A stretch of DNA of 64,000 bases from Vicinamibacterales bacterium (GCA_035492775.1 DATJIW010000090.1:6737-70736); one strand, 5' to 3'. Shown: positions 2-55,080, counted from the stretch's first letter. Numbers and translations: made by a program. The notes: generated by a model from the letters alone, not told the origin.

Positions 2-1981
2 GCGCGCGATGCGTTCGACAAGGTCCGCGGCATGGTCACCGGACACCATACGCGTCCCAAAGGCGCGAGCACCATCACGCAGCAGCTGGCGCGCGGCCTC
101 TTCCCGCAGGAAGTGGGCTACGAGATCGGCGACGTGAGCCCGGAGCGGAAGGTGAAGGAAGCGCTCGTCGCCATCCAGATCGAGAAGCGCTACACGAAAC
201 ACGAGATCTTCGCGCTCTACGCCAACCAGATGTATCTCGGTGAAGGCGCATACGGGGTCGAGGCGGCGGCGCGCACCTATTTCGGCAAGTCGGCGAAGGA
301 CGTGAACCTGGACGAGGCCGCGATGATCGCCGGCCTGTTCCAGACATGGCGGAACGCGCCGACGGTCAACATGGAACGGGCAAAGGCGCGGCAGGCCTAC
401 GTGCTCCAGCAGATGGCGGACGACCGCTTCATCACGCAAAAGGAAGCCGACGCCGCCAAGGCGCGTCCCATCGTCCTCGCCGCCACCGCCAAACCAACCA
501 ACAGCATCGCGCCATACTTCCTGGAAGAGGTGCGGAAGGATCTCGAGTCGCGCTACGGCGCCAAATCCGTCTACGAGAACGGCTTGAGCGTGCAGACGTC
601 GCTCGACGTGAAACTGCAGGACGCCGCGAACCGCGCGTTGGACGAAGGCGTGCGGCGGATCGATCATCTGCATGGCTTCCGGAAGCCGCAGCGGAACGTC
701 ATCGCCGAGCACCACACGGTCGAGAATTTCAAGCACCCCCGGTGGGAGCATGCGTTCGAGATCAACGACATCGTCCCCGCCGTCGTGACGTCCGCCGATG
801 CGGCGAACATCCACCTTCGGGCGGGGGCGTACCGCGTCACGATCGACAAGAAAGGCTATGCGTGGACGCACAAGACGCCCGCACAGCTCGTCAAGGAGGG
901 CGACCTCGTCGACGCGAAACTCCTGACGCTCGACACGGCCGAGCACACCGCGACCGCGGCGCTCGATCAGCCGCCGCTCGTGGAGGGCGCCGTGCTTGCC
1001 GTCGACAATCACACAGGACAGATCAGGGCCATGATCGGCGGGTGGAACTTCGAGCGAAGCAAGTTCAACCGCTCGACCCAGGCGTTCCGGCAGGTCGGCT
1101 CGGCGTTCAAGCCGTTCGTGTACACGACGGCCATCGATCGAGGCTACACGCCGACGTCGATAATCGACGACGACCCGGTGAGCTTCCCGGCGGGACCCGG
1201 ACAGCCTCCGTACTCGCCGCAGAACTACGAGAAGGACTTCTGGGGACCGATTACGCTGCGTCGCGCGCTCGAGCACTCGCGCAACGTGCCGGCCGTGCGG
1301 CTGATGGACGCGCTCGGCCCCAAACAGGTCATCGCCTACGCGCGGCGCTTCGGTTTGTCGGCTCCGCTCCCGCCCTATCTCTCGGTGGCGATCGGATCCG
1401 CGGAGGAGACGCTCATCGAGATGACGAGCGCGTACTCGACGTTTCCGAACCAGGGCGTCCGGATGACGCCGTATTCGATCCTGAAGGTCACCGATCGGCA
1501 AGGGAACGTGCTGGAGGAAAACCGCCCGGAGCCGAAAGATGCGATTCGCGCGGACACCGCGTTCGTGATGGTGAACCTCCTGCGCGGCGTGGTCCAGCGC
1601 GGGACCGCCGCGCAGGCCGGATCGATTAACTGGCCGATCGCGGGCAAGACCGGCACGACCGACGACTACACGGATGCGTGGTTCATCGGGTTCGATCCGG
1701 ACATCACCGTAGGCGTCTGGGTGGGCTACGACCAGAAGAAAACGCTCGGCCGCGGGATGGAAGGATCGAGAGCGGCGCTCCCGATCTGGATCGACATCAT
1801 GAAGGCATACATCGATCACCGCACCGATGTGCCAAAATTCGAGCCGCCCAGCAACATCGTCTTCGTGTCGGTGGACAGGGATTCCGGCGCAGCGGTGGAC
1901 GCAGGCGCGCCAGGGTCGATCAGCGAGGCCTTCATCGCCGGCACACAGCCCGGGTCATTTGGGAGCATTAATCGTCATTGA
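2..1981 (+). CDS. mrcA: Class A penicillin-binding protein (PBP1A family; GT51 glycosyltransferase + transpeptidase), 5' end outside window
   Basis: Frame open from base 2. GT51 motifs GASTITQQLAR and EKRYTKHEIFALYANQMYLG. Transpeptidase SxxK (SAFK), SxN (HSRN) and KTG (AGKTGTT). Confidence 0.9.
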   Translation, partial: ARDAFDKVRGMVTGHHTRPKGASTITQQLARGLFPQEVGYEIGDVSPERKVKEALVAIQIEKRYTKHEIFALYANQMYLGEGAYGVEAAARTYFGKSAKDVNLDEAAMIAGLFQTWRNAPTVNMERAKARQAYVLQQMADDRFITQKEADAAKARPIVLAATAKPTNSIAPYFLEEVRKDLESRYGAKSVYENGLSVQTSLDVKLQDAANRALDEGVRRIDHLHGFRKPQRNVIAEHHTVENFKHPRWEHAFEINDIVPAVVTSADAANIHLRAGAYRVTIDKKGYAWTHKTPAQLVKEGDLVDAKLLTLDTAEHTATAALDQPPLVEGAVLAVDNHTGQIRAMIGGWNFERSKFNRSTQAFRQVGSAFKPFVYTTAIDRGYTPTSIIDDDPVSFPAGPGQPPYSPQNYEKDFWGPITLRRALEHSRNVPAVRLMDALGPKQVIAYARRFGLSAPLPPYLSVAIGSAEETLIEMTSAYSTFPNQGVRMTPYSILKVTDRQGNVLEENRPEPKDAIRADTAFVMVNLLRGVVQRGTAAQAGSINWPIAGKTGTTDDYTDAWFIGFDPDITVGVWVGYDQKKTLGRGMEGSRAALPIWIDIMKAYIDHRTDVPKFEPPSNIVFVSVDRDSGAAVDAGAPGSISEAFIAGTQPGSFGSINRH

Positions 1982-2215
1982 CGATTGGCGACTGAAGATT
2001 GGCGATTTTTAATTGGCGATTGGCGATTGGCGATTGGGAATCGACCATTGACGATTGGCGACTGAAGATTGGCGATTTTCAATTAGCGATTGGCAATTGG
2101 GAATCGACCATTGGCGATTGGCGACTGAAGATTGGCGATTTTCAATAAGCGATTGGCGATTGGCAGTGACAATTGGCGAATTCGATGATTGGCGAATCGA
2201 CGATTGGCGAGTGGT
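1976..2215. repeat. Tandem array of degenerate GATTGGC heptamers organised in three higher-order units (starts 1976, 2046, 2109)
   Basis: Direct reading: cattgacgattggcgactgaagattggcgatttt(t/c)aatt(g/a)gcgattggc...attgggaatcgac recurs at 70- and 63-nt spacing. The array starts on the PBP1A stop codon (TGA 1979-1981). Confidence 0.9.
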
Positions 2216-2391
2216 AAGGGACTGCCCCTGGGTTAACCCAGGTTGGTGAGTGTCAACCGCGGTTGTCGTTTATGCTCTCCGCCGGCGGGCCGACGATTGG
2301 CGGATTGGCGAGTGGTGAACCGCCTCCACCTGGGTTGACCGAAGTTGACGAGTGCAACCGCGGTTGTCGTTTATCCTCTCCGCCGGCGGGC
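2198..2391. repeat. Tandem duplication (93 nt + 101 nt) containing the 3' end of the four-helix-bundle ORF
   Basis: Cores 2248-2290 and 2350-2391 differ by one indel and one substitution (gagtg(t)caaccgcggttgtcgtttat(g/c)ctctccgccggcgggc). Both copies start cgacgattgg. Confidence 0.85.
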
Positions 2392-2784
2392 CGTGTTGAT
2401 CTGTTTGGCGAGATCCAGCCGCTGCGCCTGTCGTTCCTGGGCGGTTTTTCGCGACTTCACGAAGATCCGGGTTAGTTCGTCCGCCTCCTGGATGAGGTCC
2501 TGCGCCGAGTCGCGGGAGACCAGATTCGATCGAACCAGGAGTTCCAGCCACCCTTTCGATTCATCCGCCTCTTCGACGGCCACTCCGATTTTTGCGATGA
2601 ATTCCGCAGAACTTCGCGCGCGGCACGTCGCGCGGTAGTTGCTGTCCGTTGCGCCCGCGGCGTCCAGGAGCTGTTCGGCGACCTTCTGGGCTGCCAGAGT
2701 TCGAGGCAGGCTCTCACAGAACTTGATGACATCAGCGGCGAACTTCTGCGTCCGCTCCTGGAGTGCAACAGCCTTGGCATTCAT
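2371..2784 (-). CDS. Four-helix-bundle protein (23S rRNA intervening-sequence protein family, TIGR02436-like)
   Basis: 137-aa all-helical ORF from ATG 2784 (MNAKAVALQERTQKFAADVIKFCESLP...SNYRATCRARSSAEFIAKIGVAVEEADESKGWLELL). Codons upstream of 2784 in the listed ORF are repeat-encoded. Confidence 0.75.
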   Translation of the reverse strand: MNAKAVALQERTQKFAADVIKFCESLPRTLAAQKVAEQLLDAAGATDSNYRATCRARSSAEFIAKIGVAVEEADESKGWLELLVRSNLVSRDSAQDLIQEADELTRIFVKSRKTAQERQAQRLDLAKQINTARRRRG

Positions 2785-2810
2785 GACGACCGGCTTTGCA
2801 TCTGCCGCGC

Positions 2811-2936
2811 CAATCGTCAATCGCCAATGCCAATCGTCAATCGTCAATCGTCAATGCCAATCAGCAATCGTCAATGAGTAATCGCCAATCGCCAATCGTC
2901 AATCCCTAATCGGCAATCGCCAATCGCCAATCGTCA
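2811..2936. repeat. Tandem array of about 18 CAATCGY heptamers (reverse complement of the GATTGGC word)
   Basis: Direct reading: caatcgt caatcgc caatgc caatcgt ... caatccc taatcgg caatcgc caatcgc caatcgt. The array abuts the prfB stop codon (TAA, 2937-2939). Confidence 0.9.
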
Positions 2937-4077
2937 TTAGTCGATTTCCTCCTCCGTCGCCGCCGAGAGCGCCCCGGCGGCCTTCTTCATCAGGTACGTC
3001 TTGATGAAGAAATCGATGTCGCCGTCGAGTACGCGGTTGACGTCGCCCACCTGCTCCTTGGTCCGATGGTCCTTCACCATCTGGTACGGGTGCAGAACGT
3101 AGCTGCGGATCTGGCTGCCGAACGCGATGTCGCGCTTTTCCCCGCCGAGCTTTTCGAGCGTCGCCTGCTGCTCCTTCGTCCTCAGGTCGTACAGCCGCGC
3201 CTTCAGCACCTTCATCGCCTGCGCCCGGTTCTTGTGCTGCGACCGCTCGTTCTGGCACGAGACAACGATTCCGGTCGGCAGATGCGTGATGCGGACCGCC
3301 GAGTCCGTGACGTTCACGTGCTGGCCGCCGGCGCCGCTCGACCGGTAGGTGTCGATCCGCAGGTCCTTTTCCTCGATCGCCACATCGACGTCGTCGGGCA
3401 GTTCGGGCCAGACGTAGACCGACGCGAATGACGTGTGCCGCCGTGCGGCCTGGTCGAACGGCGAGATTCGCACCAGCCGGTGGACGCCGGCTTCGGCGAG
3501 CAGTAACCCGTATGCGTAGTCGCCGTAGACGGTAAAGGTCGCGCTCTTGATGCCCGCTTCGTCGCCCGGCTGCACTTCGATGACGTCCCGCTTGAAGCCG
3601 CGGCGTTCGGTCCATCGAAGGTACATGCGCAGCAGCATCTCGGCCCAGTCCTGCGACTCGGTGCCTCCGGCGCCCGGGTGAATCGTCACGATGGCGTTCT
3701 TGCGATCGTGCTCGCCGCCGAGCATTTTCTTCGTCTCGCCGGCGTCCACCTCGCGCGCGAGATCGGCAAGGCCGGCCGCGAGATCGTCGCCGACGGGCTC
3801 GCCGGCTTCCGCCCACTCCGTCAGAACGGCCAGGTCGTCGACGCGCCGTTTCAGCGATTCGCTCAACGCGCGGTCGTCTTCGAGCCGCCGCCGGCGCTGC
3901 AGCAGCTTCTGCGCCGCCGCCTGATCCTTCCAGAAGTCGGGTTCGCCTACACGCTCCTCGATCTTCCTCAGCTCGTCGGCCGGGCGTGTGGCGTCAAAGA
4001 TAGCTCCGCAGATCGGACGCGCGCTTTGCCAGGTCCTGATACTGCCGGAGCTGCTCCTCGAGATGCTGAACAGTCAT
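2937..4077 (-). CDS. prfB: Peptide chain release factor 2, expressed through a programmed +1 frameshift
   Basis: SPF-type body with GGQ motif (SGAGGQHVNVTDSAVRITH). A 27-codon leader from ATG 4077 ends at an in-frame TGA. A +1 shift reads on into ...LDATRPADELRKIEERVGEPDFWKDQ... and joins the listed ORF 2937..3866. Confidence 0.9.
3993..4007 (-). promoter_or_regulatory. prfB: RF2 autoregulatory +1 frameshift site (GGAG C TAT CTT TGA C)
   Basis: Minus-strand sequence tgcGGAGcTATCTTTGAC. CTT TGA C is the canonical RF2 shift heptamer, with an upstream SD-like GGAG. Confidence 0.85.
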
Positions 4078-4120
4078 AACGAATCCAATTCCCACCGCTG
4101 CAAGCTCAAGGCTCGCAGCG

Positions 4121-15509: not shown

Positions 15510-16202
15510 TTATTCGAACGCCAGCACGGGCAGGCCGGCGGCGTCGCGCACGCGGCGCTCGAACGCTGCGGCGGCAGCGGATTCGCGATCCGCCGCGGTC
15601 ATCCGTGCGGCGAACGGCGCAATGTCTTCCTGCGCAGCGGCGCGCATCGCGCGCGCGGTTTCGCCATCGATCTCACCGATCGCAGCCGCCGTCAGTCGGG
15701 CGTCGAGTGCCGACAGGCGTTCGAGCACCCGCGTACGCTCGTGTCCGCGGGCATTACGCGCGGCGGTCCGCATCGTATCGAGCTCGCGGACGGCATCGGC
15801 GAGCGCTGCGTCGAAGCCTTCGGACCGCCAGGGCCCGCCGCGCCGGGACGTCAGCCGCGCGATGACGCGGTCGAGGTGCGCCGGTAGCGAGTCGCGCCGG
15901 TGCGAGCTTTCGTCGGTACTTCCGCCTTCCGCCCCAACGCCCACGGCGCGCCGCCAGTTGTCGAAGAGATCGAGGATGTCGGCCTCGCAGAACTCGATCC
16001 GCACCGGACGCCGTCGCGGACCCTTCGCGTAGTAGCGATCGCAATACTGATCAATCCCTCTCTTCGCGAGCGCCAGCGGTACTCCCTGCTCCGCCCAGCC
16101 GCAGACGCGCTCGAATGCCGGGCCGACGATGCGAATGAGGTGCCCCTCGTTCTTCTGACACAAATACCCTTCGAGCTCCCGGCAGTATTCCGAATTCTGC
16201 AT
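15510..16202 (-). CDS. Hypothetical protein (Cys-rich N-terminal 72 aa, Ala/Arg-rich helical C-terminus)
   Basis: Uninterrupted 230-aa ORF 16 nt upstream of the methyltransferase gene. Cys at residues 7, 15, 34, 54 and 72. No family recognised. Confidence 0.55.
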   Translation of the reverse strand: MQNSEYCRELEGYLCQKNEGHLIRIVGPAFERVCGWAEQGVPLALAKRGIDQYCDRYYAKGPRRRPVRIEFCEADILDLFDNWRRAVGVGAEGGSTDESSHRRDSLPAHLDRVIARLTSRRGGPWRSEGFDAALADAVRELDTMRTAARNARGHERTRVLERLSALDARLTAAAIGEIDGETARAMRAAAQEDIAPFAARMTAADRESAAAAAFERRVRDAAGLPVLAFE

Positions 16203-16236
16203 CGCTGGTTCGAGACCTGGAATTGCTGGACGATTT

Positions 16237-16325
16237 CAATCTTCAATGCGCAATCTTCAATGCGCAATCTTCAATCGGCAATCTTCAATCCCTAATCTTC
16301 AATCGGCAGTCTTCAATCGCCAATG
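16237..16325. repeat. Tandem array with 14-nt period (CAATCTTCAATSSS, about 6 copies)
   Basis: caatcttcaatgcg x2, caatcttcaatcgg, caatcttcaatccc, taatcttcaatcgg, cagtcttcaatcgc. The array spans the coaX stop codon (16299-16301). Confidence 0.9.
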
Positions 16326-17117
16326 TTCGGTTCTTTGCCAGATCAACCGGAGCCCGTCGAGCGTGAGATTCTCGTCCACGCGCTCGATGGCGCGGCTTTC
16401 GCCGGAGAGCACATCTGCGAGTCCTCCGGTGCCGATGACGAGCGCGCGGTCGCCTCCGTCCAGTTCCGCACGGATGCGGCGTACCAGTCCATCGACGAGG
16501 TCAACGTAGCCGAAGAACAAACCCGCCTGCATCGCGGCCACGGTGTTCTGCCCGATCACGCCGGCCGGCTTCCGCACGTCCACGCGGGGAAGCCGCGCGG
16601 CGCGCTGAAAGAGCGCCTCCGCCGAGATGTTGATGCCCGGACAGATGACCCCTCCGATGTACTCGCCCGCCGACGACACCACGTCGAACGTCGTGCCGGT
16701 GCCGAAGTCGACGATGATGAGCGGGACCGCGGATTGACGGCCGTATTTCTCCCACGCCCCGGCCGCGTTCACGATCCGGTCGGCGCCCACGTCCGTGATC
16801 GGGTTGTAGCGGACGGGCATGCCGGCGTTCGTCGCATCGACGACGAACGCGGCGTGATGGAAGTAGCGCTGGCACATCTCCTCAATCGGCCGTGTCAGCG
16901 GCGGCACCACCGACGCGACGGCGATGCCGGCGAGTTCGGGAATCGGCACGTGCGCGGTCTCGAAGAGGCGCGTCACGAAAATGCCCAGCTCGTCCGCCGT
17001 GCGTTCGCGCAGGGCTGCCAGCCTCCAGCTGTGCGCGAGCCGGTCGCCTTCGAAGACGCCGATGGTGACGTTCGTGTTGCCGACGTCGAGCGCCAGCAGC
17101 CGCGGAGCTACTTCCAT
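16299..17117 (-). CDS. coaX: Type III pantothenate kinase
   Basis: MEVAPRLLALDVGNTNVTIGVF N-terminus at ATG 17117, plus DFGTGTTFD and GGLA motifs. The listed ORF's upstream extension overlaps birA. Confidence 0.85.
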   Translation of the reverse strand: MEVAPRLLALDVGNTNVTIGVFEGDRLAHSWRLAALRERTADELGIFVTRLFETAHVPIPELAGIAVASVVPPLTRPIEEMCQRYFHHAAFVVDATNAGMPVRYNPITDVGADRIVNAAGAWEKYGRQSAVPLIIVDFGTGTTFDVVSSAGEYIGGVICPGINISAEALFQRAARLPRVDVRKPAGVIGQNTVAAMQAGLFFGYVDLVDGLVRRIRAELDGGDRALVIGTGGLADVLSGESRAIERVDENLTLDGLRLIWQRTEHWRLKTAD

Positions 17118-17911
17118 CGCACCTCTCCTGCGACAATCCGTTCGACTCCCTGGTCCGTGGATACGCGCAACGCTCCGTCGGCGTCGAGGCCCGCGCTCAG
17201 GCCGGTCCGCACCTGGTCCGGGCCGTCCCACTCGACCGCCGCCCCGTGTGCGGCCGGCGACAGCGCGAGCCACGATTCGAGCAGCCTCGCCGGCCCGTTC
17301 GCCGCGACGTCGGCCGTGACGCGGTGAAGGGCAGCAAGAACTGCGGCGAGGACGGCGCCGCCGTCGACTTCGCGGCCGAGTTCCCCTTCGAGCGATCCAG
17401 CGCGTCCCTCCAGTTCGGGGGGAAACGCCGATCGGCGAAGGTTGATCCCGAATCCAAGCACGATGTAATGAATCGAGGCGGCACCGCTCGACGCCTCTGC
17501 GAGAATGCCGGCGAGTTTACGGCGCGAGCGAAACGCCTGTCCTGTGACGGCGACCACGTCGTTCGGCCATTTGAGCTGCACGGGCAGTCCCGTCGACTCG
17601 CGGATGCCGTGCGCGACCGCCACGCCCCCTGCGAGCGTGATCCACCGCGCGAGCGCCGGACGGCGGAGGATGGTCGAGACATAGAGTCCCGACTCTGGCG
17701 GTGAGTGCCACGATCGTCCGAGACGTCCGCGGCCGGCGGTCTGCGCACCCGCGATGAATACGCAGCCTTCGTCGGCGCCCCGGTCCGCCGCGCGCAACGC
17801 GACGTCGTTCGTCGATCCGATTTCGTCGAAGTATTCCCACGACCTACCGAACACGCCGCGCTGCTCCGCGTTGGCAGACAAGGCGCGGCTGATTTCGGAG
17901 CGGAGCGTCAA
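17108..17911 (-). CDS. birA: Biotin--[acetyl-CoA-carboxylase] ligase
   Basis: GRGRLGRSWHSP biotin-binding motif and KWPNDV motif. TTG start overlaps the nadC stop. Confidence 0.85.
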   Translation of the reverse strand: MTLRSEISRALSANAEQRGVFGRSWEYFDEIGSTNDVALRAADRGADEGCVFIAGAQTAGRGRLGRSWHSPPESGLYVSTILRRPALARWITLAGGVAVAHGIRESTGLPVQLKWPNDVVAVTGQAFRSRRKLAGILAEASSGAASIHYIVLGFGINLRRSAFPPELEGRAGSLEGELGREVDGGAVLAAVLAALHRVTADVAANGPARLLESWLALSPAAHGAAVEWDGPDQVRTGLSAGLDADGALRVSTDQGVERIVAGEVRWK

Positions 17912-18762
17912 AGCGGTTCCACGTCGAGACGGAGGTCGGCGGCCGGCGCGGCCTGCGTCACCTCGCCGACGGACAGGTAATCGGCGCCGGTCGCCGCAAG
18001 CGCGTCGACGGCGTCGAGGTCGAACGGTCCCGCGACGGCCACCTGCGCACGCCCTCTTGACCGTCGTACGAGCTCGCGCAGATCGTCGACGCTCAGGCGA
18101 TCGGCGACGATCACCGACGCGCCCGCGGACACTGCCGCATCAGCCTCCGTCAGGGAGTGCACCTCCACCTCGATGGGCATGTCGGGGTTGGCCGCAGCCA
18201 TGCGACGGACCGCCTCCGCCACGCTGCCGGCCAGGCCGAGATGGTTCCTCTTGACCGTCACGCCGACGTCCAGCGAACCGCGATGATTCGCGCCGCCGCC
18301 GGCGCGGACGGCGTACTGCTCCAGCGCGCGCAACGTCGGTGTCGTCTTGCGCGTATCCAGCACGACCACGCGTCCGGCGGTCTGGTCAACGAACCGCCGC
18401 GTCAGTGTCGCGATTCCGGAGAGCCGCTCGAGGAAGTTCAGAGCCGTCCGCTCTGCGGTCAGCATGGAACCAGCGAGGCCCTCGACCTCGGCCACGCAGA
18501 CGCCGGCGCTGCACGGCTGCCCGTCGGCCACATGCGCGTGAAAGACGCACGCGGGATCGAGTTGACGGAAGGCCTCCGCCGCGACGGCCAGCCCCGCGAT
18601 CACACACGCGGAGCGCGCCACGATGGAGCCCCGCGCGCGCAGATCCGGCGGCACGATCGCTTCCGTCGTCACGTCGCCCCACCCGAGATCCTCGGCGAGC
18701 GCGCGGCGGACGACCTCTCGATACAGCGCCGGATCGAGCGCCTCGAACGGAACGGACTTCAC
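17908..18762 (-). CDS. nadC: Nicotinate-nucleotide diphosphorylase (carboxylating)
   Basis: QPRTase pattern (ALAEDLGWGDVTT..., LDTRKTTPTLR, ...MLDN-like C-terminal TIM region). GTG 18762 overlaps the valS stop (GTGA). Confidence 0.85.
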   Translation of the reverse strand: MKSVPFEALDPALYREVVRRALAEDLGWGDVTTEAIVPPDLRARGSIVARSACVIAGLAVAAEAFRQLDPACVFHAHVADGQPCSAGVCVAEVEGLAGSMLTAERTALNFLERLSGIATLTRRFVDQTAGRVVVLDTRKTTPTLRALEQYAVRAGGGANHRGSLDVGVTVKRNHLGLAGSVAEAVRRMAAANPDMPIEVEVHSLTEADAAVSAGASVIVADRLSVDDLRELVRRSRGRAQVAVAGPFDLDAVDALAATGADYLSVGEVTQAAPAADLRLDVEPL

Positions 18763-21329
18763 GCGCCGCGCTCCTGAGGCGACGAATCCGGTGCAGCGAA
18801 CCGGACATCGACGCTGAACGTGTCCGATGTCTCGATCGAGAGCTCCCGGACGAGGGCCACGGCGCACAAGTCTGCGCGGGCGGAATCGAGCAGCGGGCGG
18901 TCGCGTTCGGTGAGGCGCAGCACCGCCAGTTCGACCGGCGTTTTCATCGGCCGCTGCTCCTCTGATTTTTTCTTCCGGATCTCACCGAGCACGTTTGCTG
19001 CGAGTTCGAGCGTCCGCACGTCGTCTTCACGCTCGCCGCCTGCGGCCTCGAACAATTCATCGAAAGAAGGCCAGGCTGCGGTGTGAATGGAGCCTGGACG
19101 CCACCAGGACCAGACCTCTTCCGTCACGAATGGAAGAAACGGCGCGAACAGCCGGAGCAGCGACGACAGCGCGGTGAGAAGTGCCGCGTTCGCAGAACCG
19201 GCGCCCGCCGGACCCTGGTCGCCGTAGCGGCGCGATTTCACGAGCTCCAGATAGTTATCGCAGAAGAACCAGAACAGCGACTCCGCCCGTTCCAGCACGC
19301 GCGAGTAGTTGTAGTCCTCCAGATCCGCCGTCGCGTCGCGCACCAGGCGCCCGAGCAGCGTGAGCAGGCCGCGATCGATCGGTTCCACGATTTCGCCCCG
19401 AGGTTCCGGGCTGGCGAGCACGAACTTCGATGCGTTCAGCAGCTTGATCGCGAGCCGTCGGCCGACCTTCATCTGGCCAACGTCGAACGCCGTGTCGGCG
19501 CCGGGCCGGCCGCTCGCCGCCCAGTAGCGCACACCGTCCGACCCGTGCTCCTCGAGGAGCGCCATCGGCGTGACGACGTTGCCCTTGGACTTCGACATCT
19601 TCTTGCGGTCGGGATCGAGAATCCAGCCCGAGATCGCCGCGTGCTTCCACGGCAGCGTGTCGAATTCCAGATGCGAGCGCAGCACCGTGGAAAACAGCCA
19701 CGTGCGGATGATGTCGTGCGCCTGCGGACGGACGTCCATCGGAAAGACGCGGGCGAACAGGTCCTCGTCCGCGATCCAGCCTCCAGCGATCTGCGGGGAA
19801 AGCGACGACGTGGCCCAGGTGTCCATGACGTCAGGATCCCCACTGAAACCGCCGGGCTGGTCGCGCTGCTCCGCGCGGTACCCCTCCGGCACATCGGTCG
19901 ATGGATCGACGGGGAGACGCTCCTCCGGCGGAACGATCGGATGCGCGTAATCCCGGCTGCCATCCGGCAGTACGGGGTACCACAGCGGGAAGGGGACGCC
20001 GAAGAACCGCTGGCGGCTGATGCACCAGTCTCCGTTCAGACCGTTGATCCAGTTCTCCAGCCGCGCCTGCATGTAGGGGGGATGCCAGCAGAGTTCCTTC
20101 GCACGCGCCAGCAACGCATCGCGGAACGTCATGGTCTTGATGAACCACTGTCGGCTGGTCACGATTTCGAGCGGCCGGTCCCCTTTTTCGTAGAACTTGA
20201 CCGCATGCGTGATGGGGCGCGGGTCGCCTATCAGATCGCCGCTTTCGCGCAGCAGCTCGGCGATCTTCGATCTCGCCTTCGCCGCGGAGAGGTTCGCGAG
20301 CTGGTCGTACGCCTGCTGGGCGCGCGAGGGCTCGCGCGATTCCCAACCGTCATTTCCCCATTGCACGGGCCGCAGGGCGCCGTTCGCCTGGATGATCGCG
20401 CGCACCGGAAGCGACAGCGCCCGCCACCAGACCACGTCGGTGACGTCACCGAACGTGCAGATCATCGCGATCCCGGATCCTTTCTCGGGATCGGCCAGTT
20501 CGTGCGGCCTGATCGGCACGCGCACGCCGAAGAGCGGCGTGATGACATCGGTGCCGAAGAGCGGTTTGTACCGCTCGTCGTCTGGATGCGCCACGAGCGC
20601 GACGCACGCCGGGATCAACTCAGGGCGGGTGGTTTCAATCTCCACGGAACCCTGGTCGGCCCTCTGGAAGCGGATGCGATGATAGGCGCCAGGCTGCTCT
20701 CGATCCTCGAGCTCCGCCTGGGCCACGGCCGTGCGGAAGTCGACGTCCCACAGGGTGGGGGCCTCGAGCTGATAAGCGAGGCCTTTGCTGAGCAGGCGCA
20801 GAAACGAGAGCTGCGACACCTTCTGCGCGTCACGGCCGATCGTCGCGTACGTCATGCCCCAGTCGACCGACAGGCCGAGATATTTCCACAGCGCTTCGAA
20901 TGCCTTTTCGTCCTCGGCGGTGAGCCGCGCGCACAACTCGATGAAGTTCGGACGCGACACCGAGAGGGGATGCTTCTCCGGTTTCGCCGGCGGCTGGAAG
21001 TCCGGGACGTACGCCAGAGACGGATCACACCGGACGCCGTAGTAGTTCTGCACGCGCCGCTCCGTCGGCAGCCCGTTGTCGTCCCATCCCATCGGATAAA
21101 ACACTGCCTTGCCGCGCATCCGCTGAAAGCGCGCGATGACGTCCGTGTGCGTGTACGAGAAGACGTGGCCGACGTGCAGCGATCCGCTGACAGTCGGCGG
21201 CGGCGTGTCGATCGAATAGACTCCTTCGCGCGGACGCGACCGATCGAACCTGTAAACGCCGTCAGCGGCCCATCGCTCCATCCATTTTTTTTCGAGTCCT
21301 TCGAGGGCAGGCTTTTCTGGAACAGTCAA
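18759..21329 (-). CDS. valS: Valine--tRNA ligase
   Basis: HIGH-type motif [19 protein letters not shown] and KMSKS. Proposed TTG start at 21329 ([20 protein letters not shown]). Farther-upstream codons of the listed ORF are repeat-encoded ([11 protein letters not shown]). Confidence 0.9.
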
Positions 21330-21333
21330 AGAG

Positions 21334-21429
21334 AACTCCCAACTCCCAATTCCCAACTCCCAATTCCCAACTCCCAAACCCCAACTCCCCAATTCCCAAC
21401 TCGCACTTCCCAGTTGCCGATTGGGAGTT
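21334..21429. repeat. Tandem array of AACTCCC/AATTCCC heptamers ending in one inverted unit (GATTGGGAGTT)
   Basis: Direct reading. 21334-21361 is the 28-mer AACTCCCAACTCCCAATTCCCAACTCCC, also found at 54404-54431 and inverted at 53772-53799. Confidence 0.95.
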
Positions 21430-21430
21430 A

Positions 21431-22360
21431 TCAACCTCTTTTAAGTCGTTCGATTTCTTCACGCACGAGACGTTCGGCGGCTTCGAGGACTACGCCGCGC
21501 AGGGTCGAGTCCTGGAGCCGGGCAAGAACGCGATCGGCAATCGCGTCGATCAGGGCCTCGGGATCGGGGGGCGCGGGTCCCGTCCGCTCTCCGGCCGGCG
21601 CCGAGTGGGCGACCCGGCCCTCGGCGGTCAGCAGCGCCGCAAAGGCGTCGGCCAGCGACGGCGGTATTGCTCCGGCCGACGCAGGTGCCGCGGCGCGGTC
21701 AGCCGGTGGTGGCATCGCGTCAGGTTCCGCCGTGCGGGGCGCCGCCGCACGCGCCGTGACGGCGGCGTCGAGCCGGTCGAAGTACGCCTCGAGCGGATCG
21801 TCGGATCGGGCGCGGCCTGGCTGGTCCGGCGGAGCGGGCGGCGGCTCCTGGATCGGTTCGTATCGCGCGAGCTCGGCCCCCGGTGCCACGCCAGCGTGAT
21901 TCGCCGGCGGCGGCTCCCGCCGTACCGGCGGGACGGGCGGCCGCACGGGTCCCTGAGCCGTCGGCCCGGCGGCCCACAGGTCGGCGGGGCGATTGCCCAG
22001 CAGCAGATCCTTGACGCGATTGATGACCAGCTGCGGCTCGAACGGCTTCACGAGCACGCCGTCGCAGCCCGCGGCACGCGCGCGCGATTCGTCGATCGGC
22101 TCGAAGGCGCCGGTGAGCAGAAGCACCGGCACGTGCGACAGCTGCGGATGCGATTTGACGAACGCGGCGACTTCGTAGCCGTCGCGTTCGGGCATGCCGA
22201 CGTCCGCCAGCACGATGTCCGGACGCACACGCTCGGCCTGCTCGATCGCGGCCTGGCCGTTGCCGACGGTGATGACCTCTATGTTCTCGTCGGCGAACGT
22301 CAGCTCGATGACGCGCTGGATCGTGATGCTGTCGTCGGCAAGCAGCAGCTTGTGGGGCAT
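21431..22360 (-). CDS. Response regulator (CheY-like receiver domain with Pro/Ala-rich C-terminal extension)
   Basis: [17 protein letters not shown]...[17 protein letters not shown]...LLTGAFEP...VLVKPF receiver signature. No DNA-binding output domain recognised. Confidence 0.8.
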
Positions 22361-36303: not shown

Positions 36304-36663
36304 TCAGACGCCGGCGATGTCCGACCCGCTCAGCGCCGCGGGCGGGGTTTGAGGCGCCTGCGGCGTCTCTTCCTCCCGGTTGATCAGCTCCTTCAGCTCC
36401 TTGCCGGGTTTGAAGTACGGCACCTTCTTCGGCGGGACGTCCACCTTGTCCCCCGTTTTCGGATTGCGCCCCTTTCGCGGCTCCCGCCGGCGCAGGCGGA
36501 AGCTCCCGAATCCACGCAGCTCGATCTTCTCGCCGCGATGAAGCGCATCGATGATGCTCTTGAAAACCGTATCGACGATGACCTCGGAGTGCTTCTTGGT
36601 CAGATCGGAAACGCGCGAGACTTCCTCGACGAGTTCCGCCTTCGTCATGCTGCCGGTGTTCAT
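36304..36663 (-). CDS. Integration host factor / HU family DNA-binding protein
   Basis: MTKAELVEEVSRVSDLTKKHSEVIVDTVFKSIIDALHRGEKIELRGFGSFRLRRREPRKGRNPKTGDKVDVPPKKVPYFKPGKELK is a complete IHF/HU fold signature. ATG 36663; upstream listed codons are repeat-encoded. Confidence 0.85.
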   Translation of the reverse strand: MNTGSMTKAELVEEVSRVSDLTKKHSEVIVDTVFKSIIDALHRGEKIELRGFGSFRLRRREPRKGRNPKTGDKVDVPPKKVPYFKPGKELKELINREEETPQAPQTPPAALSGSDIAGV

Positions 36664-36698: not shown

Positions 36699-36925
36699 TG
36701 GTGCGCCGTGCTCCGTGCTCCGTGCTCTGTGCTAGTGCGCCGTGCTCGGTGCCAGTGCTCCGGTGCCAGTGCTCCGTGCTCGTGCACCGGGACTCAGCAC
36801 TCCGGACGGAGCACCGAGCACCAAGCACCGAGCACCCGGATCGGGCACCCCGGACGGAGCACCGAGCACCAAGCACCCGGATTGGCACCCCGGACGGAGC
36901 ACCGAGCACCGCGCACCGAGCACCG
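36699..36925. repeat. Large imperfect palindrome built from heptamers: (GTGCTCN)n left arm, (GAGCACC)n right arm with about 47-nt higher-order repeats
   Basis: Left arm 36699-36788 gtgctcc gtgctcc gtgctct.... Right arm 36802-36925 has ccggacggagcaccgagcaccaagcacc...cggat(c/t)gg(g)cacc repeated 2.7 times. Confidence 0.9.
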
Positions 36926-36958
36926 CATCAGCAGTGGCGCGAAGCGCTACTGCTGATG
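36926..36958 (-). terminator. 15-bp stem / 3-nt loop hairpin that contains the rpsA stop codon; no U-tract
   Basis: catcagcagtGGCGCgaaGCGCtactgctgatg. The rpsA TAG is at 36947-36949, inside the descending arm. Confidence 0.4.
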
Positions 36959-38716
36959 TTTGAAGTGGTCGCCCAGCGTCACTTCGGGACGGCCCGCCGT
37001 TTCCGTGTAGGCCTCCCAGTCCGCGCGGAACTCATCGTTCTTCAGCGCACGGATGCTCAAGCCGATCTTCCGCTCTCCCGGGATCAGCTTGATGATCTTC
37101 ATCTGGTACGTCTCGCCGACCTGCAGATCGAGCTTGTCTTCCTTGCCCTTCTGGTGCGAGTCGTCGAACTCCGAGACGTGAATCAGCCCTTCGATCCCCT
37201 CGGCCAGCTCGACAAACGCGCCGAAGCTGGTCATCCGAACGACCTTGCCTTCCACGAGGTCGCCGACGTGGTGCTGGGTGAAGAACTCATCCCAGATATC
37301 GGTCTGCAGCTGCTTCAGGCCCAGTGACAGGCGCTGATTCTCAGCGTCGATGTTGAGCACCATCGCCTGGACGGCATCGCCCTTCTTCAACACCTCCGAC
37401 GGGTGCTTCAGGCGCTTGCTCCACGACATGTCCGAAATGTGGATCAGTCCGTCGATGCCTTCTTCCACCTCGACGAACGCGCCGAACTCGGTGAGGTTGC
37501 GCACCTTGCCCGTGATCGTGGTGCCGATCGGATACTTCTCCGACAGCTCATGCCACGGGTTGCTCTCGACCTGCTTGAGACCGAGCGAGATGCGGCGCGC
37601 ACCCGGATCCACGCCGAGGACCATCGTCTCGACGGTGTCGCCGACGTTGAGGATCTTGGACGGGTGCTTGACGCGCTTGCTCCACGACATCTCGCTGACG
37701 TGGATCAATCCCTCGACGCCGGGCTCCAGCTCGACGAACGCGCCGTAGTCGGTCAGGCTGACGACCTTGCCGGTGAGACGCGCGCCGACCGGGTACCGCT
37801 CGATGACGTTCGACCACGGGTCGTTCATCAGCTGCTTGTGACCGAGCGAGACGCGTTCGGTCGCGGCGTCGTACTTCAGCACGATGACGTCAATTTCCTG
37901 GTTGACCTGGAACAGCTCCGACGGATGCGTCACGCGGCCCCACGACATGTCCGTGATGTGCAGCAGACCGTCGATGCCGCCGAGATCGATGAAGGCCCCG
38001 TAGTCGGTGATGTTCTTGACGACGCCGCGGAGGACCTTCCCCTCGGCGAGTGTGTCGAGCGTGTGCTTCTTCTTCTCGGCGTTCTCCTCTTCGAGGAGCA
38101 CCTTGCGGGACAGCACGATGTTGCCGCGCTTCTTGTTGACCTTGATGACGCGCATGCGCAGTTCCTGCCCGCGCAGGGCATCCAGGTTCCTGACGGGACG
38201 CACGTCGATCTGCGAGCCGGGGAGAAACGCGCGAACGCCGATGTCGACCGCGAGTCCGCCCTTGATGCGCTCGATGACGCGACCGATGACGACCTTCCGC
38301 TCGGCGTAGGCCTTCTCGACCTCGTCCCAGATCTTCATCTTTTCCGCTTTTTCGCGGGAGAGAACGACGTAGCCTTCGCGGTCCTCGGTACGCTCGAGCA
38401 GCACATCGACCGTGTCGCCCGGCTGAACGGTGACCTGCCCGTTCTCGTCCACGAACTCGTCGATGGCAATGAGCCCTTCGGACTTGTAGCCGACGTCGAC
38501 GATGACTTCGGACGGCGTAACCTTCAGCACCGTCCCCTTCACGACCTCGCCTTCCGCGATGTTGCGGAAGCTGTTATCGTAAAGGTCCAGAAGGCGCGCG
38601 TATTCCTGCGGATCGACCTGATCGTCCAGCGGGGAGAAGCCCGTTGAAGTACCGGCGGCTCCAGTCGTCGCACCTCCTTGTGTTGTGATGTTCTTTGTAT
38701 CTTCTGCTTGCGCCAT
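36947..38716 (-). CDS. rpsA: 30S ribosomal protein S1
   Basis: Six S1 (OB-fold) repeats (e.g. GxVxxVxxxGAFVEL/DLG motifs). ATG 38716 (MAQAEDTK) is preceded by SD GGAGGA. Confidence 0.9.
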   Translation of the reverse strand: MAQAEDTKNITTQGGATTGAAGTSTGFSPLDDQVDPQEYARLLDLYDNSFRNIAEGEVVKGTVLKVTPSEVIVDVGYKSEGLIAIDEFVDENGQVTVQPGDTVDVLLERTEDREGYVVLSREKAEKMKIWDEVEKAYAERKVVIGRVIERIKGGLAVDIGVRAFLPGSQIDVRPVRNLDALRGQELRMRVIKVNKKRGNIVLSRKVLLEEENAEKKKHTLDTLAEGKVLRGVVKNITDYGAFIDLGGIDGLLHITDMSWGRVTHPSELFQVNQEIDVIVLKYDAATERVSLGHKQLMNDPWSNVIERYPVGARLTGKVVSLTDYGAFVELEPGVEGLIHVSEMSWSKRVKHPSKILNVGDTVETMVLGVDPGARRISLGLKQVESNPWHELSEKYPIGTTITGKVRNLTEFGAFVEVEEGIDGLIHISDMSWSKRLKHPSEVLKKGDAVQAMVLNIDAENQRLSLGLKQLQTDIWDEFFTQHHVGDLVEGKVVRMTSFGAFVELAEGIEGLIHVSEFDDSHQKGKEDKLDLQVGETYQMKIIKLIPGERKIGLSIRALKNDEFRADWEAYTETAGRPEVTLGDHFKHQQ

Positions 38717-38805
38717 GCTCAGCGGGTCCTCCTGCACGTACTTGCCGGGATCTCAGCTCCGGCGGGCTGTAGTGTGTTCATCGCTCGAGTTGCGATAAGC
38801 AATAG

Positions 38806-53698: not shown

Positions 53699-53799
53699 AA
53701 GTTGGACCTGGATTGGGAGTTTGGGAGTTGGGATCGGGGGTTAGACCTGAACTGCGCGTTGGACCTGAATTGGGAGTTGGGAATTGGGAGTTGGGAGTT
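53699..53799. repeat. TTGGGAG-word array with internal 21-nt duplication; last 28 nt are the exact inverse of 54404-54431
   Basis: gttggacctg(g/a)attgggagtt occurs at 53701 and 53758. 53772-53799 is GGGAGTTGGGAATTGGGAGTTGGGAGTT. Confidence 0.95.
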
Positions 53800-53814: not shown

Positions 53815-54384
53815 CTACTGCCCGAGCCGTGGATCGAAGCAATGCCGGCATCTCGCTTCGTAAGTGCCCTGCGCCCCGACGAGCACCCGCTCGCTGCTCG
53901 CGACGAGCCGCTGCGTGTGGTTGGCGGGCGCACCGCAGACCATGCAGATCGCCAGCGTCTTCGAGATGTATTCAGCGATCGCGAGCAGCTGCGGCATCGG
54001 CTCGAACGGCTTGCCCAGATAGTCCTGATCGAGCCCGGCGACGATGACGCGTTTGCCCTGATCGGCGAGCGTCGTGCACACGGCGGGCAGCTCGACATCG
54101 AAGAACTGCCCCTCGTCGATCCCGACGACGTCGGTCTCCGGGCGCACTTTCTCCAGCAGCTCGCGCGAGCTCGACACGTTCTCGGCTTCGATCCGCATGG
54201 CGCTGTGCGAGGTGACGTGGTCCTCGCCGTAACGGTCGTCGATCCGCGGCTTGAAGATCTGGACTCGCTGGCGGGCAATCTGGGCGCGGCGGAGACGGCG
54301 GATCAACTCCTCACTCTTGCCGCTGAACATGCTGCCGGCGATGACTTCAATCCAGCCGCCGGTGGGCCTGTGGGTGATCTCCAT
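53815..54384 (-). CDS. tdk: Thymidine kinase
   Basis: ATG 54384 gives [30 protein letters not shown] (P-loop). C-terminal zinc motif CMVCG...CRHC. Upstream listed codons are repeat-encoded. Confidence 0.9.
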
Positions 54385-54400
54385 ATGTGGACGGGCAATG

Positions 54401-54497
54401 CTCAACTCCCAACTCCCAATTCCCAACTCCCGATTGTTCAGGGCCGACGCCGAATTCGAGGTCGAATTGGGAATTGGGAGTTGGGAATTGGGAGTTG
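54401..54497. repeat. Inverted word arrays (CTCCCAA arm, 44-nt spacer, TTGGGAG arm) able to form a 22-bp perfect stem
   Basis: 54410-54431 (caactcccaattcccaactccc) is the exact reverse complement of 54476-54497 (gggagttgggaattgggagttg). Confidence 0.95.
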
Positions 54498-54516: not shown

Positions 54517-55080
54517 TCAAATCTTCCGAAGATACTCTCCCGTTTCGGTATTCACGCGCACCGCGTCGCCGATGTTGATGAACGGCGGCACTTGCACGAC
54601 GAGACCGGTCTCGAGCGTGGCTGGCTTGACCTGGGCGCTCGCCGTCGCACCCTTGATGCCGGGTACCGTCTCGACGACTTTCAGATCGACGGCCTGCGGC
54701 AGTTCGATGCCGACCGGCTCGGCGCCGTAGAACTCGACGGTGATGGTCGCGTCGGGCACGAGGTAGTTCGCGGCGTCGCCGAGCACTTCCGCGTCGATGT
54801 GCAGCTGCTCGTACGTCGACGTGTCCATGAAGTGATACGAGTCGCCGTCCTTGTACAGGTACTGCATCTCGCGCTCGTCGAGGACGGCGCGTTCGAGAGA
54901 GTCTTCCGACCGCAGCTTCTGGTCCGAGAGCGAGCCGTTCCGGATGTTCCGGAACTTGGCACGCACGAATCCACGCAGGTTGCCGGGGGTGACGTGCTGC
55001 AGGTCGAGAACCCGGTAGAGGTCGTTCTCGAGCTTGACGAGCATGCCCTTCTTCAGTCGTGTCGCTTGAATCGAAGCCAT
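54517..55080 (-). CDS. efp: Elongation factor P
   Basis: MASIQATRLKKGMLVKLENDLYRVLDLQHVTPGNLRGFVRAKFRNI is the EF-P N-terminal KOW-like domain. 187 aa. Confidence 0.9.
   Translation of the reverse strand: MASIQATRLKKGMLVKLENDLYRVLDLQHVTPGNLRGFVRAKFRNIRNGSLSDQKLRSEDSLERAVLDEREMQYLYKDGDSYHFMDTSTYEQLHIDAEVLGDAANYLVPDATITVEFYGAEPVGIELPQAVDLKVVETVPGIKGATASAQVKPATLETGLVVQVPPFINIGDAVRVNTETGEYLRKI

Follow-up and report, generated by a model that had tools for sequence, protein, structure and literature searches.

Intervening sequences (IVSs) of 23S and 16S ribosomal RNA (rRNA) genes are typically located in helix 9, 25 or 45. These elements and their S23p open reading frames (ORFs) have been known for over three decades, and, to our knowledge, there is no agreement on their origin or function; likewise, we know of no role for the genes of "four helix bundle proteins" (4HB), which have been annotated by the thousands. 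Here, we describe a 4HB gene enclosed by two inverted heptamer arrays, which lies between the convergent genes mrcA and prfB of a Vicinamibacterales bacterium in a stretch of 64,000 nucleotides (GCA_035492775.1, DATJIW010000090.1:6737-70736), hereafter the window. All coordinates are counted from the first letter of this 64-kb window, and the sense RNA of the 4HB gene is that of the minus strand.

The helix-45 IVS of Coxiella burnetii encodes an S23p protein of the PF05635 family and has a 28-bp stem of terminal inverted repeats; two to three tandem heptamers (GACAGAT), variable in copy number between strains, are located directly upstream of the S23p ORF, and RNase III cleaves at the first of them (PMC4990558). 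This was the sole description of a link between the family and heptamers that we found in the open-access literature. Avd, a protein of diversity-generating retroelements (DGRs), belongs to an RNA-protein complex, and PF05635 is the commonest accessory family beside DGR reverse transcriptases (PMC10053308). Intergenic heptamer repeats are known to be in excess in Xanthomonas, Nostoc, Beggiatoaceae, and Bacteroidetes, and no function has been ascribed to them (PMC4692102, PMC4679880).

The cassette from the window resembles rRNA IVSs, such as the helix-45 element of Coxiella and those of Leptospira, in having a PF05635-family protein encoded in the loop and complementary ends forming a stem around the ORF (here in a predicted minimum-free-energy fold). 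Other shared features are tandem heptamers of variable copy number beside the ORF, sporadic presence among close relatives with loss and gain, and expression via read-through from the host in place of an own promoter, the latter being probable for the cassette (PMC4990558). Several differences are as follows. First, the cassette is situated between two protein-coding genes and not inside a 23S or 16S rRNA gene. Second, its arms are heptamer arrays of 126-238 nt, whereas the Coxiella IVS has a 28-bp unique inverted repeat. Third, the ORF of the cassette is under purifying selection, while that of Coxiella is thought to be decaying and untranslated (PMC4990558). Finally, excision from the precursor by RNase III is known for rRNA, and for the cassette it would follow by analogy.

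Inverted heptamer arrays bracket the 4HB gene family

In total 86 4HB genes were located in 121 sources (metagenomes and genomes), 66 of them with at least 150 nt of sequence on both sides; contigs often terminated inside arrays. An array was scored if period-7 repeats occurred within 350 nt of the gene. Arrays flanked both sides of 54 of the 66 genes, one side of seven, and neither side of five, the split (both/one/none) being 23/2/2 at the prfB/mrcA junction and 31/5/3 elsewhere. Control genes were called crudely, by the contrast of GC content at third and second codon positions, in an unbiased 507-kb sample consisting of the window and 40 loci picked via PBP1A, the mrcA product. Arrays on both sides were found for 3 of 197 control genes (1.5%) vs. 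82% of 4HB genes (Fisher p = 2e-40, the loci not being independent); as many of the sampled loci are orthologous, the effective sample is smaller than these counts.

The association extends well beyond the clade of the window. In the Acidobacteriota set, the upstream arm (in the sense orientation) is (CGATTGS)n, usually 100-135 nt before the ATG, and the downstream arm is (SCAATCG)n, 2-40 nt past the stop codon; homologs that are more distant (47-58% identity) have (CGATTTT)n and (AAAATCG)n as arms. A tblastn search against plasmids yielded 22 records, mostly cyanobacterial, and ten of them, from Cyanobacteriota, Chloroflexota, Bacteroidota, and Spirochaetota, were examined. All ten 4HB genes had period-7 arrays within approximately 100 nt of both ends. 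The heptamers varied by lineage (TAATTCG, GAAGTCG, ATTTTAG, AATCGTA, and others), and in at least seven cases the downstream heptamer was the reverse complement of the upstream one. Hence, the IVS-like layout noticed in the window by an earlier note, which was made from its sequence alone, turned out to be a hallmark of the family, and the gene and its repeats form one conserved module with co-varying arms, seen in at least five phyla (Acidobacteriota, Cyanobacteriota, Chloroflexota, Bacteroidota, and Spirochaetota). We found no link of free-standing 4HB genes to heptamer arrays in the open-access literature, an earlier description elsewhere being possible.

The module typically occurs just downstream of a co-oriented host gene: in 26 of 31 loci the upstream neighbor had the same orientation as the 4HB gene, and this was also so in all ten plasmid loci, where the downstream neighbor was co-oriented too. 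Several plasmid 4HB genes were found inside defense operons, namely drmD-4HB-MmeI (DISARM), csx2-4HB-cas1, DUF1156-4HB-HEPN (two cases), and helicase-4HB-methylase (two cases). In practical terms, the cassettes split operons, including those for defense, and break metagenome assemblies at the arrays. The defense-operon cassettes (L128-L132 and L135) reside on plasmids of Planktothrix, Pseudanabaena, Gloeocapsa, Chlorohelix, and Dolichospermum, and the DUF1156-4HB-HEPN order was found in one cyanobacterial and one Chloroflexota plasmid.

The two arms of a cassette match each other better than they match the arms of other cassettes. For 18 diverse cassettes, the mean energy of the duplex was -68.5 kcal/mol with the own partner vs. 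-44.1 kcal/mol for cross pairs (permutation p < 1e-4), and in 12 cases the own partner ranked 0-2 of 18; in the Acidobacteriota set, the duplex energies were -57 for own, -50 for cross, and -24 for shuffled pairs. Covariation is thus seen for whole arms: the heptamer changes from lineage to lineage, and the arms of one cassette stay complementary, which argues that complementarity is either selected or mechanically enforced. A side observation concerns the metagenomic cassettes L088-L106 (47-58% identity), located downstream of a histidine kinase gene. Each of these carries three arrays, of which (GATTTTC)n and its complement make up a hairpin whose end abuts the Shine-Dalgarno sequence GGAGG; the remaining one, (AAAATCG)n, comes after the 4HB stop codon, so that the first arm could pair with either of two partners.

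The cassette between mrcA and prfB

The features of the locus are listed below.

32-1981, plus strand: mrcA, 3' part, encoding PBP1A (class A penicillin-binding protein), left flank; Pfam Transgly and Transpeptidase
1977-2214: left heptamer array, (GATTGGC)n on the plus strand, 3' arm (GCCAAUC)n in the sense RNA; Tandem Repeats Finder (TRF) (ATTGGCG)n, period 7, 33.7 copies
1979-1991, plus strand: left member of the 13-mer TGACGATTGGCGA, overlapping the PBP1A stop codon; second copy at 2049-2061
2202-2393, no strand assigned: 101-bp tandem duplication; TRF period 101, 1.9 copies, 85% match; 39-nt copies 97% identical
2371-2784, minus strand: 4HB gene, 137 aa, PF05635/TIGR02436 (S23p), by profile matches
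2785-2807, minus strand: short leader from the 5' arm to the ATG, by comparison with upstream regions of related cassettes
2808-2936: right heptamer array, (GCCAATC)n on the plus strand, 5' arm (GAUUGGC)n in the sense RNA; TRF (CGCCAAT)n at 2808-2933, period 7, 18.3 copies
2924-2936, minus strand: right member of the 13-mer, exact reverse complement of TGACGATTGGCGA, directly after the prfB TAA; second copy at 2889-2901
2937-4079, minus strand: prfB (peptide chain release factor 2, RF2), right flank, immediately upstream of the 4HB gene and in the same orientation; Pfam PCRF and RF-1

The arrays, the duplicated 3' segment, and the 137-aa four-helix-bundle ORF reported in the earlier note were all recovered (the arrays and the duplication by TRF, the ORF by PF05635 and TIGR02436), and the coordinates bear out its statement on the extent of the unit: it occupies the whole mrcA-prfB spacer, from the PBP1A stop (1979-1981) to the base before the RF2 stop (2937-2939), where the right array ends. 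The 13-mer and its exact reverse complement are present at the two places given there. Its chance expectation in the window is 0.01, and the match is perfect, as claimed; its special status as a terminal inverted repeat does not hold, since both arrays are built of one heptamer and there is no distinct terminus. Each arm has two copies of the 13-mer, for 27 left-array positions an exact inverted 13-mer match is present in the right array, and the longest inverted matches between the arrays, up to 16 nt, are internal. The inverted-repeat pairs between the arrays (I1-I25) are 71-82% complementary over 41-93 nt. No target-site duplication was found at the ends of the unit, the flanks being GTCAT and TTAGT.

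The left array contains a higher-order 63-bp repeat (2019-2179; 2.6 copies, 90% match, TRF). The 101-bp duplication takes in the last 22 nt or so of the 4HB ORF, approximately 60 nt of the 3' untranslated region with short palindromes CCTGGGTTAACCCAGG, CAACCGCGGTTG, and CCGCCGGCGG, and the first array units. The last approximately five codons of PBP1A (~1964-1978) together with its TGA stop consist of array-like sequence: the end ..GSINRH* (1964-1981) is written by ATTAATCGTCATTGA, while the closest relatives, L001 and L002, end in ..SAR* or ..SSR*, and the PBP1A C-terminus departs from theirs precisely where the array-like sequence starts. Judging from this comparison, the 3' end of this essential gene has been remodeled by the repeat array, and cassettes can thereby reshape the 3' ends of neighboring genes. 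Slipping and recombining arrays would fit the 101-bp duplication and the 63-bp repeat, as well as these array-like codons.

On the other side, the main frame of prfB spans 2937-3866, and its N-terminal frame ends at the programmed +1 frameshift site CTT TGA C (~3995-4001, minus strand), approximately 25 codons into the gene; due to this site, the RF2 ORF was listed as 309 aa with the start at 3866. The ORFs within 6 kb of the 4HB gene encode PBP1A, RF2, Lnt, and a SPOR protein. The leader of the window cassette retains just the last ~35 nt (..TGGCGCGGCAGATGCAAAGCCGGTCGTC-ATG) of a 100-135-nt leader that is conserved in related cassettes. In the leaders of L041-L087 we observed conserved blocks GCAGRAACTGCGA, GAAAAC.GGCCTGATTTC, and TTGGCGCGCCGGATGCAATGTCCGGCGGCC-ATG, and visual inspection suggested a pair of small hairpins with changes that look compensatory, the loop of the second one containing an in-frame upstream ATG. 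No consensus structure was obtained with RNAalifold for 18 leaders.

The pairing of the arms anticipated by the earlier note is reproduced by folding: when 1970-2945 was folded as RNA of either strand, the outer arrays were predicted to pair into a stem of approximately 130 nt enclosing the ORF, with z-scores of -7.3 (sense RNA) and -10.7 (opposite strand). A scan of 1800-3100 found no sigma-70-like promoter on the minus strand; two terminator-like plus-strand matches inside the ORF were within the chance expectation.

The 4HB ORF scored above the curated cut-offs of both PF05635 (E = 6e-13, 49.3 bits, cut-off 33.8) and TIGR02436, "four helix bundle protein" (E = 3e-20, 72.3 bits, cut-off 24, 107 of 109 profile positions), and 2342 homologs were found at E<=1e-3, mainly in soil metagenomes. 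The alignment of 27 homologs has 47 invariant columns, and pairs of related genes have dN/dS of 0.09-0.33 with the median 0.24 (Nei-Gojobori); therefore, the gene encodes a protein under purifying selection. The AlphaFold2 model (pLDDT 95.2) has helices 3-24, 30-54, 59-85, and 91-136, with a basic C-terminal tail (..ARRRRG), and shows the four-helix-bundle fold of the solved family members. The closest structures by Foldseek were BT_0352 (2RLD; phmmer E = 8e-12) and XCC0516 (2GSC), with TM-scores of 0.8-0.87 on the target, followed by the DGR protein Avd (4DWL, 8UB7). The window protein differs from BT_0352 and XCC0516 by a predicted extra long basic C-terminal helix, and we found no description in the open-access literature of such genes being packaged in inverted heptamer arrays. 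2RLD, 2GSC, and Avd each crystallized with five chains. In profile searches, PF05635 and TIGR02436 were the sole matches, and neither these nor the structure search revealed a nuclease, transposase or other recognizable catalytic domain; no PADLOC defense-system model matched the protein, and phage and viral searches detected no homologs at the sensitivity used.

Comparison with relatives outlines the history of the junction. The convergent mrcA/prfB pair is kept throughout the clade, with a spacer of ~20 bp to 3.5 kb, and in many relatives the gap is just 20-35 bp, with no array. A 4HB gene is present at the junction in at least 37 loci, usually in the order found in the window (prfB, 4HB gene, and the convergent mrcA), and in several loci it is flipped. 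Pairwise 4HB identity follows RF2 identity (Spearman 0.61, 153 pairs) and never exceeds it, so that inheritance has been mainly vertical. At 87-90% PBP identity, carriers are found side by side with non-carriers (the window vs. L001/L002, L077 vs. L008, L041 vs. L006): the 4HB gene is absent from L001 and L002 (about 90% PBP identity), L004, L006, L008, and L009. Thus, sites lacking the gene do exist in the closest relatives, where the earlier note suggested looking for empty ones. Of these, L009 and L008 have GATTGG.../...CAATCG remnants without the gene, L001 has a junction hairpin of a different heptamer, and the spacer of L001/L002 is unrelated to that of the window. The closest 4HB homolog (P0002/L137, 80% identity) is flipped and is more similar than its flanks would predict.

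Two soil and rhizosphere metagenome contigs (X5 and X3) that otherwise match the window differ from it by exactly 7 nt in each array (at 2012 and 2831), a copy-number polymorphism of single heptamer units in natural populations. Arrays are altered both in such 7-nt steps and through larger duplications. Logan soil-metagenome contigs are fragmentary across the arrays; their low-depth joints 1953->2988 and 1998->2885, with 20-22 nt on one side, could be gene-less variants, and we do not rely on them. The cassette is thus an old, dispensable, fast-turnover resident of the junction, mostly inherited vertically, repeatedly lost, and sometimes flipped, and not a fresh insertion. The word "inserted" in the earlier note was an interpretation, and a recent insertion is contradicted by the occupied junctions and by the correlation with RF2.

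By its PBP1A orthologs, the window belongs to Vicinamibacterales (Acidobacteriota). The taxonomic labels of some of these relatives are inconsistent. L001 (JAICTV010000211.1), the closest relative (91% identity in PBP1A and 95% in RF2), is labeled "Phycisphaerae bacterium", the other relatives being Vicinamibacterales or Acidobacteriota. This contig is probably mis-binned, and so probably are L016 and L031 (labeled Bifidobacterium), L021 (Mycobacteriales), and L035 (delta proteobacterium).

Explanations for the cassette

Our favored explanation, held with moderate confidence, is that the functional PF05635 gene and the inverted GATTGGC arrays that fill the spacer of the convergent mrcA and prfB genes constitute a resident 4HB-heptamer cassette of the same kind as the S23p-encoding rRNA IVSs. 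It may well be their free-standing counterpart, with a stem around the ORF that, by analogy, would be processed by RNase III. From the module and its observed properties we infer the following mechanism at the RNA level. The cassette would be transcribed mainly by read-through from prfB. In the read-through RNA, the 5' (GAUUGSC)n and 3' (GSCAAUC)n arms would pair as an extended, imperfect duplex that leaves the ORF in the loop, and this stem, as in rRNA IVSs, may be a substrate of a double-strand-specific RNase (RNase III). Cleavage would free the 4HB message, and the transcripts of prfB and mrcA would be terminated or insulated by it. As the arms consist of tandem 7-mers, their pairing would tolerate slippage in any 7-nt register, so that the arms may expand, contract, and homogenize without losing the stem. 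Recombination between the arms, in turn, could yield flips, deletions leaving "solo" hairpins, and the 101-bp duplication.

A wider reading is possible, and we put it forward tentatively. PF05635 genes in inverted heptamer arrays might represent a widespread, so far undescribed class of IVS-like cassettes, whose pentameric protein would recognize the 7-nt repeats and be linked to them in function, be it by processing, by autoregulation, or even by generating or spreading them. Such cassettes might occupy intergenic spacers, operons (DISARM, CRISPR-Cas, restriction-modification) and, as the classical case, rRNA helices. If true, this would connect the heptamer excess of some phyla with the origin of rRNA IVSs and the role of S23p, as well as with the ancestry of DGR Avd. 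In any case, what would be annotated as a hypothetical protein beside simple repeats becomes the source of testable hypotheses, either an RNase III-processed stem or a protein binding 7-nt repeats.

Several observations weigh against the IVS-like explanation. First, for 12 of the 66 4HB genes, arrays are missing from at least one side, and in one plasmid cassette (L127) the arrays are direct and not inverted. Second, among the 86 period-7 arrays of the 507-kb sample, six adjoin a 4HB gene and 80 do not; hence, the arrays do not require the gene. Third, the 23S context is missing: blastn with the E. coli 23S rRNA gave no matches in 126 loci and none near the 86 sampled 4HB genes, and the Rfam scan of the whole window produced no family at the gathering score. 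The earlier note had proposed a search for further copies of the unit, 23S rRNA genes included, and neither a second copy in the window nor a 23S context in any sampled locus was found. Fourth, a G-U bias indicative of RNA-level selection on the sense strand was not significant (32 vs. 20 cassettes, p = 0.059), and pairing of the arms could equally matter in DNA. Fifth, in the acidobacterial cassettes the 5' arm is separated from the ATG by the conserved leader of 100-135 nt, and if this leader contained a promoter, the 5' arm would be outside the 4HB mRNA. Finally, the sole transcript evidence is one 261-nt root-metatranscriptome contig of a relative, covering 2288-2539.

The first alternative, which we consider unlikely, is that the arrays are binding sites, in RNA, single-stranded DNA or double-stranded DNA, for the basic-tailed 4HB protein of the cassette itself, whose solved relatives are all pentameric, serving autoregulation or the assembly of a nucleoprotein complex. 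In this case it would be the interaction, and not the need for an RNase III stem, that maintains the repeats and perhaps generates them. The link between gene and array holds family-wide although the heptamer changes, and many lineages have a CGA-containing core (CGATTGG, CGATTTT, CGATTTA, CGAATTA, CGACTTC). The phyla reported to be heptamer-rich (Cyanobacteria, Bacteroidetes, Xanthomonas; PMC4692102, PMC4679880) are probably also rich in PF05635 genes. The five-chain crystals of 2RLD, 2GSC, and Avd, and the participation of Avd in an RNA-protein complex (PMC10053308), point in the same direction. However, a simple binding-site model needs no complementarity between the arms, and yet complementarity is what is conserved. 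Besides, the heptamer is very diverse, the arm that bears CGATT differs between Acidobacteriota and cyanobacteria, and most arrays in these genomes consist of other heptamers and are far from 4HB genes.

According to the second alternative, the arrays are ordinary intergenic repeats or hairpins born by slippage, at most stabilizers of 3' ends similar to repetitive extragenic palindromes (REPs) or bidirectional terminators/insulators of mrcA and prfB, and the 4HB gene is incidental. Heptamer repeats are indeed abundant in the clade. Among tandem repeats of at least 28 nt surveyed in 763 kb of related sequence, period 7 was by far the commonest, with 239 arrays, plus 86 for period 14 and 43 for period 21; no other period, multiples of 7 aside, exceeded 45. 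The 86 arrays of the 507-kb sample comprise many different heptamers, most of them other than those around 4HB genes, and often form adjacent inverted pairs; approximately 27% of genes have an array on one side. The window itself has heptamer arrays at five further places, among them rpsA/HU, tdk/efp, coaX, and an aminoacyl-tRNA synthetase gene, the gene-less relatives L001 and L009 have heptamer hairpins at the very same prfB/mrcA junction, and the bacterial heptamer excess had been documented already (PMC4692102). All this would leave unexplained the rate of arrays on both sides, 82% for 4HB genes vs. 1.5% for others, as well as the same packaging with unrelated heptamers in four other phyla. 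Moreover, the array-free gaps of 20-35 bp in many relatives mean that the convergent pair needs no array. On balance, we regard an incidental gene as quite improbable.

The arrays do share features with the described heptamer simple sequence repeats (SSRs), such as the short tandemly repeated repetitive (STRR) sequences of cyanobacteria, GGGAATC of Xanthomonas, GGGGAYT of Nostoc, and TAACTGA of Beggiatoaceae, cyanobacteria, and Bacteroidetes. Both are tandem, mostly intergenic 7-nt units near gene ends, with lengths varying between close relatives (here, TRF period 7 and 7-nt indels), and sometimes form inverted pairs (PMC4692102, PMC4679880). Unlike the heptamer SSR reports, which mention no link to a gene family, a specific gene here lies inside two complementary arrays in 82% of cases.

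An active mobile element, recently inserted between the two stop codons with the arrays as its ends, either transposon-like or cassette-like by way of hairpin recombination, and the 4HB protein as its mobility factor, seems to us a poor candidate. Its presence among relatives at 87-90% PBP identity is patchy, the closest of them, L001 and L002, have an unrelated spacer, and the flipped closest homolog (80%) exceeds the similarity of its flanks. Homologs also occur at other loci (P0037), in plasmid operons and, according to the literature, in 23S rRNA; as cited in PMC4990558, Ralph and McClelland proposed IVS ORFs as mobility factors. Against this stand the occupation of the same junction in at least 37 loci, the 4HB identity that tracks RF2 identity, the single copy in 64 kb with no near-identical copies seen at different loci, the lack of a target-site duplication and of a discrete terminus, and the absence of a recognizable catalytic domain. 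A classical transposon or miniature inverted-repeat transposable element was rejected because no target-site duplication and no discrete end were present, and the window had one copy. Systems of REPs and REPINs with their RAYT genes are similar in that a single-copy gene is flanked by inverted short repeats that also occur genome-wide as intergenic hairpin doublets. They differ from the cassette in three respects: the 4HB protein has no HUH or other nuclease domain, the repeats are tandem heptamers of many sequences and not one palindrome of ~25-35 nt, and most genome-wide arrays differ in heptamer from those flanking 4HB genes.

A DGR remnant with the 4HB gene as an orphaned Avd is extremely improbable and was rejected at this locus because no reverse transcriptase is nearby: Avd is also a small basic protein that acts with nucleic acid and has a homologous fold (4DWL and 8UB7 of Bordetella phage BPP-1; TM-score ~0.65-0.83), and PF05635 genes do accompany DGR reverse transcriptases (PMC10053308), but its identity is 13-14%, the window protein being much closer to the non-DGR 2RLD (26% identity) and 2GSC, and among PBP1A, RF2, Lnt, and the SPOR protein, as in related contigs, there is no reverse transcriptase, nor is there a template or variable repeat nearby.

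Heptamer arrays elsewhere in the window

The thymidine kinase gene tdk (53815-54426, minus strand) is also located between inverted arrays, (TTGGGAG)n at 53713-53799 and (CAACTCC)n at 54403-54435, and is among the just three control genes, out of 197, that have arrays on both sides. Another array, (GAATTGG)n at 54464-54497, makes a hairpin with the (CAACTCC)n array just downstream of efp (54517-55080). Adjacent inverted arrays (GTGCTCC)n (36701-36790) and (GGAGCAC)n (36809-36925) form a hairpin of approximately 225 nt between the 3' end of the S1 gene (36947-38737, minus strand) and the start of the HU-family gene (36304-36663, minus strand). The array (CAATCTT/CAATSSS)n at 16235-16328 is situated between coaX (16299-17273, minus strand) and an unassigned ORF at 15510-16202, and (AACTCCC/AATTCCC)n at 21334-21412 lies directly upstream of a large aminoacyl-tRNA synthetase-like ORF (18759-21434, minus strand). 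Several of the other window arrays have a CAAT/CAAC core in common with the heptamer of the cassette.

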